This document shows, in pieces, positions 5,539 to 27,557 of a stretch of DNA of 64,000 nt. The stretch's first letter is position 1. Every line of letters begins with the position of its first letter. The stretch lies in IMG/VR virus record IMGVR_UViG_3300031555_003108, positions 27,270-91,269 of that record; one strand, given 5' to 3'. Made by a program: the position numbers and the translations under genes. This stretch comes from a virus (Duplodnaviria; Caudoviricetes). Under the pieces are notes generated by a model that searched no databases, was not told the DNA's origin, and worked only from the letters and a program-made list of their open reading frames with translations.

Positions 5539-6405
5539 TTAAGTAAGACCAGCTTCGAAGGAAGCAAAATAGCTGGCCGGCACGTGGCTTCTTATCTTAT
5601 CAATGCTCTGCTTCTTGCCAAACTGGAAACCATAGTTGTCGACAAGATCCCAGATGAAAGAAGTATCAGAAATAGCTTTTCCATTCTGACTAAGATATTT
5701 TGTCAGAAAAGCAGGCATATTTGTTGCTTTAGTGGAAATATTAGCCTTCATACTTAAAGCCCACTGCATTGCGAACCCGTTAATAGTTCTCTTCTTAGAG
5801 TCTACAACTGTAGGCTTATAGTCAGTTCCAAACTGTCTTTCAAAAGACGACAACAGATAGTCAGGCATTGCAGCAGAAAAGCTCGTAGCATTTTTTGTAA
5901 GCCAACCAAGAGAATAATAAAATTCATCTGCGGTACTTACAGGTCTATCCACCTGAGTAAGAGCTTCAAAATCCCTAAGAGCCTTTGCTTTAGCTTTCTC
6001 ATATTTCTCTTCGTTCTTCCGATCTTCTTCTGCTTTCTTCCTTGCTGCCTTAGCTTCTTCACAAGCCTGTCTATCAGCAAGTCGTTGAGCTTGTTCACGT
6101 TCGATGAAGTCTGCCTTATATACAGACTGAGCCTCAAGAAGAGTATTGAGCAGAATTTCAGGCATCTCAAGCAAGTTATGCGTAAGCACAACATCCAAAG
6201 CAATGGTCTTGGTACCGGCAGATGTGAAATCAATAGTAGCATACAAACTACCGCCGGTCAAAGGTGCTTTAACAAAAGTAAGCTGGCCTTCGCCGTAGGT
6301 TCTGTGCTTTACTGTGAAAGGATAAGCAAGAGCAGCGAGATCAGAGTTGATAGCATTTCTAAGATCTTCAGCGGTGGTGTAGTCAATGTTGTTGTAAGTA
6401 GTCAT
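5539..6405 (-). CDS. early protein with PcrA/UvrD C-terminal Tudor-like domain and coiled coil
   Basis: VKHRTYGEGQL...IDF...GTKTI resembles the V.H..FG.G.V...F...G.K motif. Confidence 0.6.
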   Translation of the reverse strand: MTTYNNIDYTTAEDLRNAINSDLAALAYPFTVKHRTYGEGQLTFVKAPLTGGSLYATIDFTSAGTKTIALDVVLTHNLLEMPEILLNTLLEAQSVYKADFIEREQAQRLADRQACEEAKAARKKAEEDRKNEEKYEKAKAKALRDFEALTQVDRPVSTADEFYYSLGWLTKNATSFSAAMPDYLLSSFERQFGTDYKPTVVDSKKRTINGFAMQWALSMKANISTKATNMPAFLTKYLSQNGKAISDTSFIWDLVDNYGFQFGKKQSIDKIRSHVPASYFASFEAGLT

Positions 6406-6465
6406 AGCAAGTTCCTCTTTCGTAAAAAATAAAAATTATTTCTGTAAGTTATTGTCCTCCATAAC

Positions 6466-6509
6466 TTACATATATATTATAACATACTTTTGCCCGTTTG
6501 TAAACTGAC
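6466..6509 (-). promoter_or_regulatory. strong early sigmaA-type promoter
   Basis: GTCAG-TTTACA-N17-TATAAT-ATATATGTAA; near-identical copies at 9356, 10376 and 15826. Confidence 0.85.
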
Positions 6510-9443: not shown

Positions 9444-10091
9444 TCAGGCTTTCATACAATATTTTCCAAAGAGCTCTTTGAGATATGTAAACCAGTAGCT
9501 CTCTTCCATATAAGTATCAGGCTTAACAAAGTCGAAGCTATAGCTTTTTCCTACAACAGTCTGCGGGAAAGTTTCAGGATCGAATCTCTTTACATCTGCC
9601 ATCAGATGCTTAGTATACTCCTGTACAGTCTTCCACTCGTAAGGAGAGAACTTCGTAGCTGCCTCGAGGCCGTAGTTCTTAAGAAGCATTTCCACCTTCG
9701 TGAGTTCTACCAGAGACTTAGCAGTAACCTTTACTGCCTTCTCCTGAATCTCATCAAGTGTAGGATACTGAATAGAGTTCTCAGCATCAGTGTACTCCTT
9801 ATCATAAGCCTGACAGCTTTCATAGAGTTCCTGAAGGTCCTCGTCAGTGAGAGCAGCAGCCGGTACTCCGTTCAGCTTACCGCAGAATACATAGTGAGGA
9901 AGCTTGGAGTAAACTTCATAAGGAAGCTTTCCATCGTTAATACCGCCGTCGATATAGGCTTGGCCGTCAGCTACGAGCTTAGTAACTCTTACTCTGCCTA
10001 CCTTATAAGCCTGAAATCTATTACCATCGTCAGAGAAATCCTCTTCGGGGCAACGAACAAATCCGTACTTAGCCATCATAATCTTTTTCAT
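9444..10091 (-). CDS. hypothetical early protein
   Basis: ORF track; AGGAGG RBS. Confidence 0.8.
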   Translation of the reverse strand: MKKIMMAKYGFVRCPEEDFSDDGNRFQAYKVGRVRVTKLVADGQAYIDGGINDGKLPYEVYSKLPHYVFCGKLNGVPAAALTDEDLQELYESCQAYDKEYTDAENSIQYPTLDEIQEKAVKVTAKSLVELTKVEMLLKNYGLEAATKFSPYEWKTVQEYTKHLMADVKRFDPETFPQTVVGKSYSFDFVKPDTYMEESYWFTYLKELFGKYCMKA

Positions 10092-15367: not shown

Positions 15368-15409
15368 AATAAATTCCTCCTGAATTATGTTCGTTTTGAT
15401 TACATTTAT

Positions 15410-18759: not shown

Positions 18760-18771
18760 AAATTTAGCAAA
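18760..18771 (-). promoter_or_regulatory. late-type promoter variant TTTGCTAAATTT
   Basis: Motif upstream of nrdD. Confidence 0.55.
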
Positions 18772-18793
18772 TTTTTAAGCTATTTCGGGTTAT

Positions 18794-18872
18794 AAAAAAG
18801 GAGACGGGACGGCAGATCTTTAACCCACCATCCCGATGCCAATGAACACTTTAACCCTAATCACTCACCTAT
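18794..18872 (-). ncRNA. putative small RNA with duplicated GGGUUAAAG seed
   Basis: Promoter ATCGTATAAT (18876-18885); 13-bp terminal hairpin plus U-tract; no ORF. Confidence 0.55.
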
Positions 18873-18886
18873 AATATTATACGATA

Positions 18887-19111
18887 TTAAAGGTTTATTT
18901 TTTGATAAAACGAGAAATAAATCCCAAGTCCGTCTACATATAAATAATACTTCTCAGAGTTATTAGTTTCGGATACTATAAAGTTTTTATACTTAAACTT
19001 ATCGAAGTAGATGGCTCCCACAGGTTTCTTATTTATATCAAGCAACTCGATTACCGGAGGCTTCTCTTGATCCGCATAAGCATGAAATAAAGTAGTTAGC
19101 GAATGTTCCAT
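18887..19111 (-). CDS. hypothetical protein
   Basis: ORF track; overlaps upstream gene. Confidence 0.65.
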   Translation of the reverse strand: MEHSLTTLFHAYADQEKPPVIELLDINKKPVGAIYFDKFKYKNFIVSETNNSEKYYLYVDGLGIYFSFYQKINL

Positions 19112-19476
19112 ATATCTCTCTCCTCTCCGAAAAGAAAAGCTTTTAGGAAATTGCCGGCGAATAGCCAGTTTTCGTAATCTATTAAAATATCCTTAATGAT
19201 CTTCTGCTCTTCTCTATAAAAATAAATTGCCTGCTGAAGTTGCTTATAAGCTAATATCAGATTAACATCAGCCTGATGATGTTTAATAGCCTTACAGTAC
19301 TTTTTAAATAAGGTATTTGCAGAACCTTCTAAAATGTCTATAACTTTCATAACTGCACGTAAAGTAGCTCTTCCACCGGCATACTCGCTAAAGAAGCGTA
19401 ATTGTTCAAATTTCGTATGTTCACCGGCTTTAGCATTTTCTATTAAATTTAAAAATAGTTCTTTTGTGTCGTCCAT
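19096..19476 (-). CDS. hypothetical helical protein
   Basis: ORF track. Confidence 0.7.
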   Translation of the reverse strand: MDDTKELFLNLIENAKAGEHTKFEQLRFFSEYAGGRATLRAVMKVIDILEGSANTLFKKYCKAIKHHQADVNLILAYKQLQQAIYFYREEQKIIKDILIDYENWLFAGNFLKAFLFGEERDIWNIR

Positions 19477-19496
19477 GTTAATAAACCTTTGTAATT

Positions 19497-19578
19497 AAAA
19501 TAATAGAGCCTCGGCAGGAGGAAATCCGAGGCTCTTACGAAAGGAGGAAACTTGTCTATAAGATTTAGTATCTTATAG
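19497..19578 (-). ncRNA. putative anti-Shine-Dalgarno small RNA
   Basis: Promoter ATCGTATAAT (19582-19591); 9-bp 5' hairpin; two UUUCCUCCU; 10-bp terminator stem. Confidence 0.65.
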
Positions 19579-19632
19579 TATATTATACGATATGTAATTT
19601 GAAATTTTTCAAATTGTCTGAAATTTTTCAAA

Positions 19633-20124
19633 TTAATAACCAAAGAAAAGATCGAAAATATCTATTGCTTTCTTTGTAGGTACATTATCGGAAGTCTGCT
19701 TGCTAAGTGTTGTCTCGAAGTCTCCATCTTTTAAAGTGATGTGATAAGAATCATACTTATCAGTAAACTCCTTAAGTGCTACCTGATAGACTTCTTCAGC
19801 CTCAGCAAGCTTGTTATGGATATCCTTCTTGCCGAGCTCAAAAGCATTCTTAAGGTTATCAAGAGCTTCAGCATACTCCTTGGTAAGCTGAGTAAGCTCT
19901 TCCTTATAAGTCTTACGTGCAGCATTGAGTGCCTTAAATGCATCTTCTACCTTAAGAGCATCAGCTTTCTTCTGAGCAGCAGCGTCTTCCTTAGTTTTCT
20001 GTTTAGCATAGTAAGCTTCCTCAGCTTCCTGAAGTTCCTCGATAGTATCAAAGGGTTCCTTCAAAAGCTTTGAGTAGTAACCATACTCTACATCTGTTTT
20101 TCTGGTGTCATTCTTCTTTGTCAT
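19633..20124 (-). CDS. coiled-coil hypothetical protein
   Basis: Heptad-rich; own middle promoter (20197-20206) and 5' hairpin. Confidence 0.8.
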   Translation of the reverse strand: MTKKNDTRKTDVEYGYYSKLLKEPFDTIEELQEAEEAYYAKQKTKEDAAAQKKADALKVEDAFKALNAARKTYKEELTQLTKEYAEALDNLKNAFELGKKDIHNKLAEAEEVYQVALKEFTDKYDSYHITLKDGDFETTLSKQTSDNVPTKKAIDIFDLFFGY

Positions 20125-20211: not shown

Positions 20212-22260
20212 TTAATTAAATCCGCAATCTACACAAATGCCAGTTTCGATATCAAAGGTTTCTTTACCACACTCAGGGCAAAGCCTTAAATGAGAATCTG
20301 AAACTTCTGAAGTTTCGTTAGGATAACCGTCATCATATTCATTACCGAGGTCATGAAGCTCTTCTGGATCAAAGTCTTCTTCAAAGCGTTGAAGTGCTCC
20401 AGGGCCTGGACCTTTGCCGGCAACGACTCTTATGTCAGTTTCTTTCCAATCAAAGCGACCACCAGCTGCACGTCTTTCTGCTTCTAAATTTTTCATATAA
20501 TCTAATGCCCAACTCTCAGCGGCTTCTTTGGTTGTAGCTGTAGTATTCATTAAATTATGCCATTTACCATTATATCTAGTTTGAATATACCAACGTGGTT
20601 GATTATGACGTTCTTCGTATTCAGCCATCCTTTTTGCATGTTGTTCATCCTCAAACTTTTTAACTAGCTCATCTCTACGTTCGCCTTCTACAAACTCCCC
20701 GGTAGCTTCATCATAATAAGGCCACTCTTGTCTCCAATTTTGACGTCCAACAGGGTACTGAGTGTTATATCTTTCGGCACCATACTTTGCCACATAGCGT
20801 TGAGCAAAACGCATATTCTTCTGTCTTTCATGCTCAGCAGCTTTGGCTTCACGCTCAGCAATCTTTTCTGGGCTCAGCTCTCTTGCTTTTCTTACTTTAG
20901 AAAGTGTATCACCAAAGCTGTCAATCGATCTGAAATCATCATCGACTCCGGCTACATCTAAAAGGTAGTCATCATCCCAAGAACTACCAAATTCACTATT
21001 AGCTGCAGCAGCAATATCAGATAAAGAAGCTTCAGTAAGGTCTTCATCTGCAGGATAAACCATAGCTACACCATCATATAAACCATAGTTATAGTCATAG
21101 TACTTGTGCTCCATTGCTTCATAAGCTTCTTCTTCTGTTACTGCTTCCACAGTTCCAATTTCTTTACCATCAAATTCACAAATCCAAGTTTTAGTCTCAA
21201 GTTCTTCGTCGAGCTGGGGTTGGTTATTAAGTTGTCGAGAAATTTCACAAGCTATAGCACTTGCCCAACCTCTATATTTTTCTGGATCCTCTGGAACTTC
21301 AATATCGTAGTTGTTCTCTATGTCTGCAATAACATCATCTACGAAATCTTCTGCAGAAGAATCATAGCCAATATCATTCACCAAGTGATTAATAGAATCT
21401 TTTACAAGGTCAGCGAGAGATTTAGCGTTGTCAATGTCCTCATCAAGGAAATCCCAATAGTTATTCTCTCTAAACGTTAGAGTCTCGCCTCTAGACTTAA
21501 TAGCCATCTCACATCTGCTGCAGAGCCAGCCTAGACCATCATCTGGTCCGCCTGCTCCAACCTCATAACGACACTCACTCTTATCAAAGAGGTCATTACA
21601 CCAAGCACACTCTACGGTATCCTCGTTCTCTTCCATCTCTTCTACTAGCTGCTCGATAGTCATTCCTTCTGGAATAGGCTTTCTGCGGAGCTCATCAGCA
21701 AGTTCTACAATCTTAGCCTTTGAGCCTTTCTTGTAACCAGCGAGAGAAGCCTCAGCATCGGCTAATGAACTAAATATTGACAAAGCGTCTGAATCGATAC
21801 GTACGAGACTTCTACCACCATTGCCTTCATAGTTATATCCATCGCTGTCGTTACTCACTTTTATTACATATTGTTTAGCAGTCTCTTGTCCAGGGGTAGT
21901 TACCCACTCATCTAAGATAGGTTCCTCCGCTTTGCAGTCTACGGAGTTGTCTAATGAATCAAACTCGGGATCCTGACCATCAGCCATAAGCTTAAGGTCG
22001 TCTTTAGTGAAAATAGACTTAGTCGGTTCTGCTTCGGTGTATCCACCCTCGGACTCACCCATTATATCTTCCCAAGACCAAACAGTTCCGAGATCAGCAG
22101 AATCAGTACACTCGCCGAAGTCGTTGCGGCATACCTCTGTCTGAGTAATAATAGGTTTCTGACTTAGGCAACCCAAAGCAAACTCTTTTGCTTCATCAAA
22201 GAAATCGAAGTGCTCATCTTCACAGTTGGGGCACTTTACAAAATAAATATATGTTACCAT
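20212..22260 (-). CDS. modular acidic protein with Zn fingers under late promoter (putative processed head polyprotein)
   Basis: Late promoter 22288-22299; modules separated by ILDE, FLDE, QLDE, DLTE; CPNC, CAWC..CSRC, CPEC..CVDC. Confidence 0.75.
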   Translation of the reverse strand: MVTYIYFVKCPNCEDEHFDFFDEAKEFALGCLSQKPIITQTEVCRNDFGECTDSADLGTVWSWEDIMGESEGGYTEAEPTKSIFTKDDLKLMADGQDPEFDSLDNSVDCKAEEPILDEWVTTPGQETAKQYVIKVSNDSDGYNYEGNGGRSLVRIDSDALSIFSSLADAEASLAGYKKGSKAKIVELADELRRKPIPEGMTIEQLVEEMEENEDTVECAWCNDLFDKSECRYEVGAGGPDDGLGWLCSRCEMAIKSRGETLTFRENNYWDFLDEDIDNAKSLADLVKDSINHLVNDIGYDSSAEDFVDDVIADIENNYDIEVPEDPEKYRGWASAIACEISRQLNNQPQLDEELETKTWICEFDGKEIGTVEAVTEEEAYEAMEHKYYDYNYGLYDGVAMVYPADEDLTEASLSDIAAAANSEFGSSWDDDYLLDVAGVDDDFRSIDSFGDTLSKVRKARELSPEKIAEREAKAAEHERQKNMRFAQRYVAKYGAERYNTQYPVGRQNWRQEWPYYDEATGEFVEGERRDELVKKFEDEQHAKRMAEYEERHNQPRWYIQTRYNGKWHNLMNTTATTKEAAESWALDYMKNLEAERRAAGGRFDWKETDIRVVAGKGPGPGALQRFEEDFDPEELHDLGNEYDDGYPNETSEVSDSHLRLCPECGKETFDIETGICVDCGFN

Positions 22261-22287
22261 TTATGTTCTCCTTAAAGGTTAATCGTA

Positions 22288-22299
22288 TAATTTAGCAAA
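22288..22299 (-). promoter_or_regulatory. putative late promoter TTTGCTAAATTA
   Basis: Consensus match. Confidence 0.75.
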
Positions 22300-27026: not shown

Positions 27027-27557
27027 TTATTTAATAACAGAATCAATACGAGAAAGTATGTCTTCTATAATTTCCTGTGTGGCTTCAGAAAGATTTTTCT
27101 CTGGGTCGGCTTTAGCTTTATTATAATAAAAATCACTAAGCTCTTTTATATCTCCCGAGGCTATAGAGAAGGAACCCCAGTCGCAGATCATCTCGAGTAT
27201 ATAGATATAAGGCATGTCCTCGCCGTCCCAGTACTCAGGATGATGCTCATTATTCATATAATGGTGTTCCCAAGCCTTTTCATATTCAGGAGTCTTCTTT
27301 CCGTCGCCGAACCACTTCTGAGCGTAAGGTTCAAACTCTTCTTCTGAGAACTTAGATTCGTCGTGCTCGGCTATGAGATCATTAAATACTTCTATATCTA
27401 TATTCTCGAAAAGGTCGGGACACTCTTTCTGGAGCCAAGAAGAAAACTGAGTAACTCTTTCTTTATGTTCTATAACATAGTTCTTATATTCTTCCTGATA
27501 ACCGTCGAGGCCTTCAGTAATCATATCTAAAAACTTATAAGCTTGAAGTAAATTCAT
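27027..27557 (-). CDS. HD-superfamily (DUF5662-like) protein with N-terminal leader
   Basis: HK..V, HDESK, AW.HH...N.HHPEYW, EMICDW. Confidence 0.75.
   Translation of the reverse strand: MNLLQAYKFLDMITEGLDGYQEEYKNYVIEHKERVTQFSSWLQKECPDLFENIDIEVFNDLIAEHDESKFSEEEFEPYAQKWFGDGKKTPEYEKAWEHHYMNNEHHPEYWDGEDMPYIYILEMICDWGSFSIASGDIKELSDFYYNKAKADPEKNLSEATQEIIEDILSRIDSVIK

Follow-up and report, generated by a model that had tools for sequence, protein, structure and literature searches.

Small RNAs (sRNAs) that pair with Shine-Dalgarno (SD) sequences are well known in bacteria, and C-rich loop motifs that contact SDs are a common sRNA feature in low-GC Gram-positive species (PMC4132741). In LhrC of Listeria monocytogenes, one single-stranded segment and the loop of the terminator bind the SD region of lapB and block translation (PMC4132741); in alpha-r14/NfeR1, identical ultraconserved anti-SD motifs on divergent stems act redundantly to occlude the ribosome-binding site (RBS) (PMC10746234); and in the streptococcal csRNAs the anti-SD sequence lies between two stem-loops, the second of which is the terminator (PMC3091779). 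Here we describe a candidate phage-borne sRNA of ~80 nt with two exposed anti-SD motifs, encoded on the minus strand at 19591-19493 of a 64,000-nucleotide stretch (hereafter the window; positions 27,270 to 91,269 of the IMG/VR virus record IMGVR_UViG_3300031555_003108, Caudoviricetes). The display of a perfect anti-SD core by a phage is a new setting for such RNAs, and neither a 2025 review of phage sRNAs (PMC12197685) nor full-text literature searches yielded a phage RNA with this core as a conserved feature.

The element is flanked by a 163-aa gene, whose stop codon is at 19633, and a 126-aa gene, which starts at 19476. A first-pass annotation, made from the letters of the window alone, had described the promoter, hairpin, unpaired motif, stem and loop, and tail of the element, all of which are present:

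19591-19582, minus strand: promoter motif ATCGTATAAT, read from the sequence, with the -10 hexamer TATAAT at 19587-19582
19578-19556, minus strand: 5'-terminal 9-bp hairpin, DNA arms CTATAAGAT/ATCTTATAG, RNA stem CUAUAAGAU/AUCUUAUAG, loop ACUAA (minimum free energy and centroid folds)
19551-19540, minus strand: unpaired stretch GTTTCCTCCTTT, containing anti-SD motif 1, GUUUCCUCCUUU (sequence and fold)
19535-19526 and 19514-19505, minus strand: 10-bp stem of the predicted intrinsic terminator, DNA AGAGCCTCGG/CCGAGGCTCT, RNA AGAGCCUCGG/CCGAGGCUCU (fold)
19525-19515, minus strand: terminator loop of 11 nt, DNA ATTTCCTCCTG, RNA AUUUCCUCCUG (fold)
19524-19516, minus strand: anti-SD motif 2, UUUCCUCCU, inside the terminator loop (sequence and fold)
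19504-19493, minus strand: U-rich terminator tail, DNA ATTATTTTAATT, RNA AUUAUUUUAAUU (sequence)

RNAfold reproduced the fold as first described, at -26.9 kcal/mol (z = -5.79; none of 200 shuffled sequences folded equally well), and the claim of two exposed anti-SD copies was confirmed: both motifs of the window copy read UUUCCUCC, with predicted unpaired probabilities of 0.93 for motif 1 and 0.99 for motif 2 in its loop. The terminator hairpin is G+C-rich, and its 11-nt loop is unusually large for a terminator. These features would define a discrete non-coding unit of ~80 nt with its own promoter and intrinsic terminator on the same strand; judged by spacing, transcription would start near 19576, and the 5'-terminal hairpin is probably a 5' stabiliser. 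The 9-mer TTTCCTCCT occurs twice in the window (both strands counted), both times within the element and 26 nt apart. This count is itself unremarkable (0.94 expected; 27 of 100 shuffles reach two), and the non-random aspects of the 9-mer are its clustering, strand, unpaired display and conservation, not its number. CCTCC occurs 15 times on the minus strand of the 91-kb record, as against 94 GGAGG on this coding strand, where the phage genes use strong SDs.

Relatives of the element were collected by several routes: from IMG/VR contigs carrying homologues of the upstream gene (60-64% identity); by a pattern scan of viral contigs; by a metagenome scan in which only motif 1 and hairpin 1's 3' arm were required; by a covariance model, which added copies in loci already collected; and by anchoring on a conserved 74-aa gene, which gave one extra lineage without use of the RNA motif. 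In the IMG/VR contigs the element recurs after the upstream-gene homologues, its stems differing in sequence, and 27 distinct variants were obtained from related phage and metagenome contigs. Ruminant and other gut samples were the source of the related contigs. In their alignment, which was fitted to the covariance model and hence favours pairing, all 426 of 426 stem cells form standard pairs, and nine of the ten terminator pairs show compensatory double changes that are plain in the raw sequences too; the covariation in relatives that the first-pass annotation had proposed as a check is present. The covariation score was 0.458, versus 0.182 in shuffles (0/500 reached it), and was at most 0.10 when pairing partners were slid by 1-3 columns. 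CCUCC stands in the terminator loop of 27 of 27 variants, while stems and loop flanks differ, and 20 of these variants were found by a pattern that did not demand CCUCC in the loop. Loop size ranges from 5 to 12 nt, the flanks give UUCCUCC in most variants and otherwise ACCUCC, CUCCUCC or CCUCCUCC, and the T-rich run after the terminator is kept in all. Hairpin 1 is conserved in its stem sequence and free to vary in its loop; its core AUAAGA/UCUUAU pairs in every one of the 27 variants, with changes to G-U pairs only. Of the six lineages found with the help of protein anchors, five have motif 1 in intact form. In most relatives the flanks of this motif can form a weak A-U stem that would present UUUCCUCC as an 8-nt loop; this middle stem, which is not formed in the window copy, pairs in 87.8% of cells and shows little covariation. 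Among 16 variants folded, the unpaired probability was at least 0.8 for most motifs, and the element was single-copy in each of five related records searched. The comparative signature is unusually clean: across the 27 variants the loop motif is invariant and the stems are fully compensated, and the single copy keeps its synteny.

G-U pairs occur at the loop-closing pair (U-G in 18 of 27 variants) and in hairpin 1 (9 of 27), and because such pairs work only in the minus-strand RNA, the minus strand is the functional one. Covariation, G-U pairs and terminator orientation all fit the minus-strand RNA first proposed rather than a plus-strand CsrA sponge, which had been named as its alternative and was rejected: no T-run follows the hairpin on the plus strand, where the G-U pairs would be C-A mismatches. 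A plus-strand reading as an SD with a TTG-initiated mini-ORF (open reading frame) was likewise discarded, as the mini-ORF varies in length and sequence or is missing in relatives. So was a 64-aa minus-strand ORF at 19449-19643 that overlaps the element, since the variants differ in length by numbers not divisible by three and their indels break any reading frame; with the plus-strand mini-ORF not conserved either, the region is taken to be non-coding. No Rfam 15 family reached its gathering threshold anywhere in the window. The best local minus-strand match was to alpha-r14 (RF02344), at chance level (18.2 bits against a gathering threshold of 58.8; E = 0.21), so the element is not a member of that family; we regard it as a new RNA family without an Rfam entry, probably akin in mode to known regulators, in a large phage of lytic type. 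In an unrelated high-GC viral contig (L009:807-858, plus strand), a hairpin with UUUCCUCC in its loop and GUUUCCUCCUUUU before it may be an independent case of the same motif layout; its match to the model was weak (21.8 bits, E = 0.25).

Characterised anti-SD sRNAs have the same layout as the element, in which an exposed C/U-rich motif comes after a 5' hairpin and is repeated in the terminator loop, and for this reason we favour SD occlusion by base pairing of the exposed motifs as the likeliest action of the RNA, with moderate confidence. LhrC1-5 share with the element redundant CU-rich motifs between stem-loops and in the terminator loop, but their motif is UCCC/CUCCC, a third copy stands in loop A, and they are chromosomal, multicopy and LisR-controlled, whereas the element is single-copy and phage-borne, carries the perfect anti-SD core CCUCC and has no sequence homology to them. 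Alpha-r14/NfeR1, the 'cuckoo'-type sRNA of alpha-proteobacteria, bears the same evolutionary signature, although its motif is CCUCCUCCC, displayed in three hairpins, and it is chromosomal and belongs to a different host phylum. The csRNAs also have two stem-loops, the second a terminator, with an SD-complementary unpaired stretch between them; they differ in their CiaR-dependent promoters and in an anti-start codon CAU found in 53 of 61, and the element differs in turn by its second motif in the terminator loop and its lack of any Rfam match. No csRNA-type CAU occurs in the unpaired stretch of the element, where the CAA 5' of motif 1 would imply a spacing of 4 nt between the SD and a UUG start and is part of the middle stem in relatives. 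RNAIII, RsaE/RoxS, SprD and FsrA of staphylococci and bacilli contact SDs through C-rich loop motifs as well, but these are UCCC/CCCC motifs directed at G-rich SD variants, and the RNAs are unrelated in sequence.

SD occlusion would proceed as follows. A minus-strand RNA of ~80 nt would be made from a standard phage promoter with its own upstream palindromic control site, and its extreme 5' hairpin and intrinsic terminator should stabilise it. It would expose two anti-SD cores, one (GUUUCCUCCUUU) located between the hairpins and the other (UUCCUCC) in the terminator loop, and these would pair with the GGAGG-type RBSs of a subset of host and/or phage mRNAs and occlude 30S binding, as in LhrC, alpha-r14/NfeR1, csRNA and RsaE-type sRNAs. 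The same sequence would form the 3' end of the upstream mRNA and, on terminator read-through, the leader of a downstream two-gene unit. We infer transcription, stability, SD pairing and translational repression alike from sequence. If the RNA acts in this way, it would give large phages of gut Clostridia a compact, RNA-only means of interfering with translation initiation, and its targets would reveal which host or phage functions are throttled. The element is also a convenient test case for how a generic SD complement of 5-8 nt gains specificity.

Several observations weigh against this reading. A generic CCUCC would also hit the strong SDs of the phage itself, and in the target-pairing search, which covered phage initiation regions, no translation-initiation region paired beyond flank-shuffled controls: the best duplex, at -20.9 kcal/mol, was matched by 24.5% of these (p = 0.245). 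Motif 1 is degenerate (UUUUAUUCCUUU) in lineage L307, and its invariance in metagenome-derived copies was imposed by the search pattern and does not count as evidence. The element also serves as a leader and terminator, a role that could alone keep the hairpin under selection, but not the loop sequence.

Among the best predicted partners, again not beyond controls, was the initiation region UACGAAAGAGGAACUUG of the gene at 5539-6405 (-20.5 kcal/mol). The 5' untranslated region (UTR) of this gene (window 6433-6470, minus strand) is preceded by a near-consensus promoter, TTTACA-17-TATAAT, and begins with a 10-bp hairpin that shows GGAGGACA in its loop; ACUUG before the start codon is kept in two relatives, which may reflect shared ancestry. 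Elsewhere in the window, the RBSs at 15380, 32069 and 4727 (minus strand) are themselves displayed in the loops of hairpins, the start codon being part of the 3' arm or following directly on it, as in AACAUAAU-UCAGGAGGAAUUU-AUUAUGUU; sites shown in this way would lend themselves to loop-loop pairing with a CCUCC loop.

A further RNA with repeated CCUCC motifs was found in three relatives (G003, G004 and G002) and is missing from the record that holds the window. It is CU-rich, ~200 nt long and has four CCUCC motifs:

L210:10248-10444 (G003 ~210457-210250), L212:1480-1660 and L211:1480-1700, minus strand: four-CCUCC RNA

The G003 copy (fold z = -5.9) has ATCGTATAAT as its promoter and a loop of 46 nt, which contains CACCUCC twice and is closed by a stem of 15 bp; this is followed by GACUUCCUCCUUUG, GUACCUCCUUUCUAAA, a terminator and, immediately after, the next promoter. 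GUACCUCCUUUCUAAA resembles the 3' tail of 16S rRNA. One motif reads ACCUCCUUUCUAAA in G003 and G002 and GCCUCCUUUCUAAA in G004. The presence of a second CCUCC-rich RNA indicates that anti-SD display recurs in this phage group and is not the by-product of one leader.

The first-pass annotation had called the promoter of the element a middle promoter, a label that did not hold up. AT[CT]GTAT[AT]AT is a phage-wide, general promoter motif, with 16 minus-strand copies in the record and ~50 in the complete relative G003, some of which precede tRNA genes; it is kept 5' of the element in all relatives read. What distinguishes this copy is the sequence upstream:

19632-19617 and 19613-19598, minus strand: two tandem palindromes TTTGAAAAATTTCAAA with a CAGACA box between them, read from the sequence

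The tandem palindromes overlap the -35 region of the sRNA promoter, and within the window the exact copy of TTTGAAAAATTTCAAA and a copy with one mismatch are confined to this site. A version reading CTGAGACA-TTT(G/A)A(A/G)AAATTT(C/A)(A/G)A is kept upstream of the element in relatives, and the CTGAGACA box and palindrome are missing from other promoters of the same class. Being private to the sRNA promoter, they point to dedicated regulation, and the tandem palindromes are probably an operator or activator site to which a protein would bind. A separate, late-type motif was seen on the minus strand of the window at 22282-22298, where it reads TTGCTAAATTATACGAT and lies upstream of the gene at 20212-22260, and at 18760-18785, as well as at 9483 in G003; reverse-complemented, its tail gives the core of the general promoter, ATCGTATAAT, and the plus-strand ATCGTATAAT match at 22282 was accordingly dismissed as an artefact of this tail and not counted as a separate promoter.

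The alternative that survives best is a purely cis-acting leader or attenuator, in which the terminator gates the two downstream genes through read-through or antitermination, the short RNA is a by-product, and the CCUCC motifs and conserved 5' hairpin either bind a regulating factor or sequester the downstream SD. The genes concerned are:

19633-20124, minus strand: upstream gene, 163 aa, an ORF without a terminator of its own
19096-19476, minus strand: downstream gene, 126 aa, which starts ~25 nt past the terminator, lacks its own promoter and is preceded by a weak SD, AAAGG

Transcripts of the 163-aa gene should therefore continue into the element and stop at the terminator there. The downstream unit consists of two genes, of 126 aa and the conserved 74 aa, neither with its own promoter, so the element would be at once a 3' UTR with a terminator and a read-through leader. 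Its terminator stands between promoter and downstream ORF, as in attenuators, and homologues of the 126-aa gene follow it at all 16 of 16 loci checked. Phage lambda offers parallels in its pR'-tR' 6S RNA and oop RNA, in which a phage promoter is followed by a terminator within ~80-200 nt, so that a short RNA results and downstream genes are reached only by read-through; lambda 6S, however, is acted on by Q antitermination as its substrate, does not regulate by base pairing and has no anti-SD motifs. A cis role would also suit hairpin 1, whose stem is conserved in sequence and not just in pairing, as a protein site would be, and the private upstream palindrome, which suggests regulated expression.

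Against an exclusive leader role, the expected number of base pairs predicted between motif 1 and the downstream SD averaged 1.9 and was three or more in only 6 of 26 variants, and no pairing was predicted between the loop motif and this SD in the read-through transcripts of the 26 variants; cis sequestration of the SD was therefore rejected as inconsistent across variants. No conserved antiterminator or fold competing with the terminator was seen in 16 variants, though a protein might still mediate antitermination. The four-CCUCC RNA of relatives is free-standing in G003, with the next promoter directly after it, and a leader role is in any case compatible with an additional role in trans. 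The SD of the 126-aa gene lacks GGAG and GAGG (weak, AGGA type) in 22 of 26 variants, compared with ~14% of genes genome-wide (gene calls and SD classes throughout came from a simple in-house caller); this counts in favour of an active anti-SD, since a gene whose own leader would occlude a strong SD should keep a weak one. All told, we consider it rather unlikely that the element works in cis only. The proteins themselves gave few clues. Neither the 126-aa nor the 163-aa protein matched a Pfam or PHROG family. The 126-aa protein, in which a Y-C pair and the residues F23, Y87 and R120 do not vary, was modelled as a long three-helix hairpin (pLDDT 89.8) with no significant PDB match, and searches with Protein Atlas and Foldseek returned only generic helical hairpins (E of at least 0.67). 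Among neighbouring genes, PHROGs and Pfam recognised only NrdD, NUMOD3, HNH and a weak tail-sheath match.

Next comes the reading that the first-pass annotation had itself put forward, in which the RNA would compete globally and silence mRNAs of the GGAGGA type, both those of the host and the early ones of the phage, with late mRNAs escaping by their AAGGAG, GGAGGT or AAAGG sites; the outcome would be host shutoff or an early-to-late translation switch. The RBS examples listed in its support were correct. The proposed bias stood in part: GGAGGA is enriched in early-like genes, but the effect is modest and depends on how classes are defined. In G003, GGAGGA SDs were found in 27 of 81 genes of the small-ORF, 'early-like' region versus 24 of 189 elsewhere (p = 1.5e-4), and GGAGGAA in 14 of 81 versus 10 of 179 (p = 0.004); in the record, GGAGGA precedes 39 of 120 non-structural but 1 of 19 structural genes (p = 0.014). 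Genes just past the late-type TGCTAAATT motif mostly use AAGGAG, and genes after this motif have GGAGGA in 5 of 47 cases versus 86 of 362 for all others (p = 0.04). The bias was lost when late-motif genes were compared with genes adjoining the general promoter (GGAGGA, p = 0.34) and under an alternative early/late split of the record (GGAGGA, p = 0.079; GGAGGAA, p = 0.77), and GGAGGA is found mostly on operon-internal genes, where overlap of the SD with upstream coding sequence offers another cause.

The differential escape of late mRNAs was not supported by the energy calculations, in which duplex energies were equal or less than 1 kcal/mol apart between classes. The single-stranded site UUUCCUCCUUU is equally complementary to AAAGGAG and GGAGGAA, its mean duplex energy was -11.1 kcal/mol for both SD classes in the record (p = 0.92), and class differences elsewhere were below 1 kcal/mol. 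The 16S tail reads CACCUCC, so GGAGGAA would pair better with the UUUCCUCC motifs of the sRNA than with the ribosome, and the sRNA-minus-16S energy difference does differ between SD classes (p = 0.012-0.016); the UU flank that would favour GGAGGAA is, however, not invariant in the loop, being replaced in the ACCUCC, CUCCUCC and CCUCCUCC variants. Six CCUCC per genome in relatives could give a high competitor capacity. The promoter, moreover, is of the general phage type, and no middle class is defined. We hold a switch of this kind to be improbable. We are no less doubtful of a related proposal, that the two-motif 80-nt RNA and the four-motif ~200-nt RNA mimic the 16S anti-SD tail as stoichiometric SD competitors or sponges. 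Were it true, ribosome access would shift between host and phage mRNA classes that differ in the SD flank (GGAGGA(A) versus AAGGAG/GGAGGU), and host shutoff or temporal control would be achieved through RNA alone.

Mimicry of the 16S 3' tail could also serve to titrate a protein, in that the element and the four-CCUCC RNA would together act as decoys for some protein, of the host or the phage, able to recognise the anti-SD tail, with no mRNA pairing involved; a nuclease, a defence effector or a factor for modification or maturation would be candidates. A sponge would be expected to carry several copies of one motif, the pairing search singled out no specific mRNA, and the ACCUCCUUUCUAAA motif of the four-CCUCC RNA in G003 and G002 (GCCUCCUUUCUAAA in G004) is in keeping with it, as is CCUCCUUU, which the element has in common with the 16S 3' end of Gram-positive type. 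Family and structure comparisons, however, revealed no recognisable RNA-binding or nuclease domain in the neighbouring proteins, leaving no candidate binder among them, and the characterised bacterial sRNAs with this motif layout all act by SD pairing; a decoy of this kind is very unlikely in our estimation. Finally, terminator stems covary in any case and the 9-mer count in the window is not significant, as would suit an ordinary intergenic promoter and terminator with incidental CCUCC and no function at the RNA level, but this is hardly credible given that the loop CCUCC persists in 27 of 27 variants while nine of ten stem pairs change, that the record has one other coding-strand hairpin loop with CCTCC and that this hairpin is intragenic, and that the promoter lies upstream, not downstream, of the terminator and so defines a short transcript.

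The record that contains the window is 91 kb long with 37.7% G+C, has 139 of its 153 called genes on the minus strand, and is a circularly permuted piece, ~42% complete, of a phage genome of ~220 kb. Its relatives G003 (220 kb) and G005 (233 kb) were rated 96-100% complete, and for 66 of its 153 called genes the record has a homologue in G003, with gene order conserved. No close phage relative was found in GenBank or INPHARED by megablast, and blastn gave one irrelevant 48-nt match. The NrdD encoded beside the element shares 93% identity with its G003 counterpart and 62-67% with NrdD from metagenome-assembled genomes of gut and rumen Clostridia (Oscillospiraceae, Acutalibacteraceae, Lachnospiraceae); this similarity, along with the strong SD usage, suggests a Bacillota host, probably a gut or rumen member of Clostridia.

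Just before the late-type promoter of nrdD, a second promoter-to-terminator unit was observed on the minus strand at 18800-18885 of the window. It has a ATCGTATAAT promoter, a conserved 5' part (AUAGGUGA...GUGUUCAUUGGCAUC), a 14-bp terminator and the tail CUCCUUUU (fold z = -3.3); the terminator stem is kept in G003 although its sequence differs, and the unit is a candidate second sRNA.

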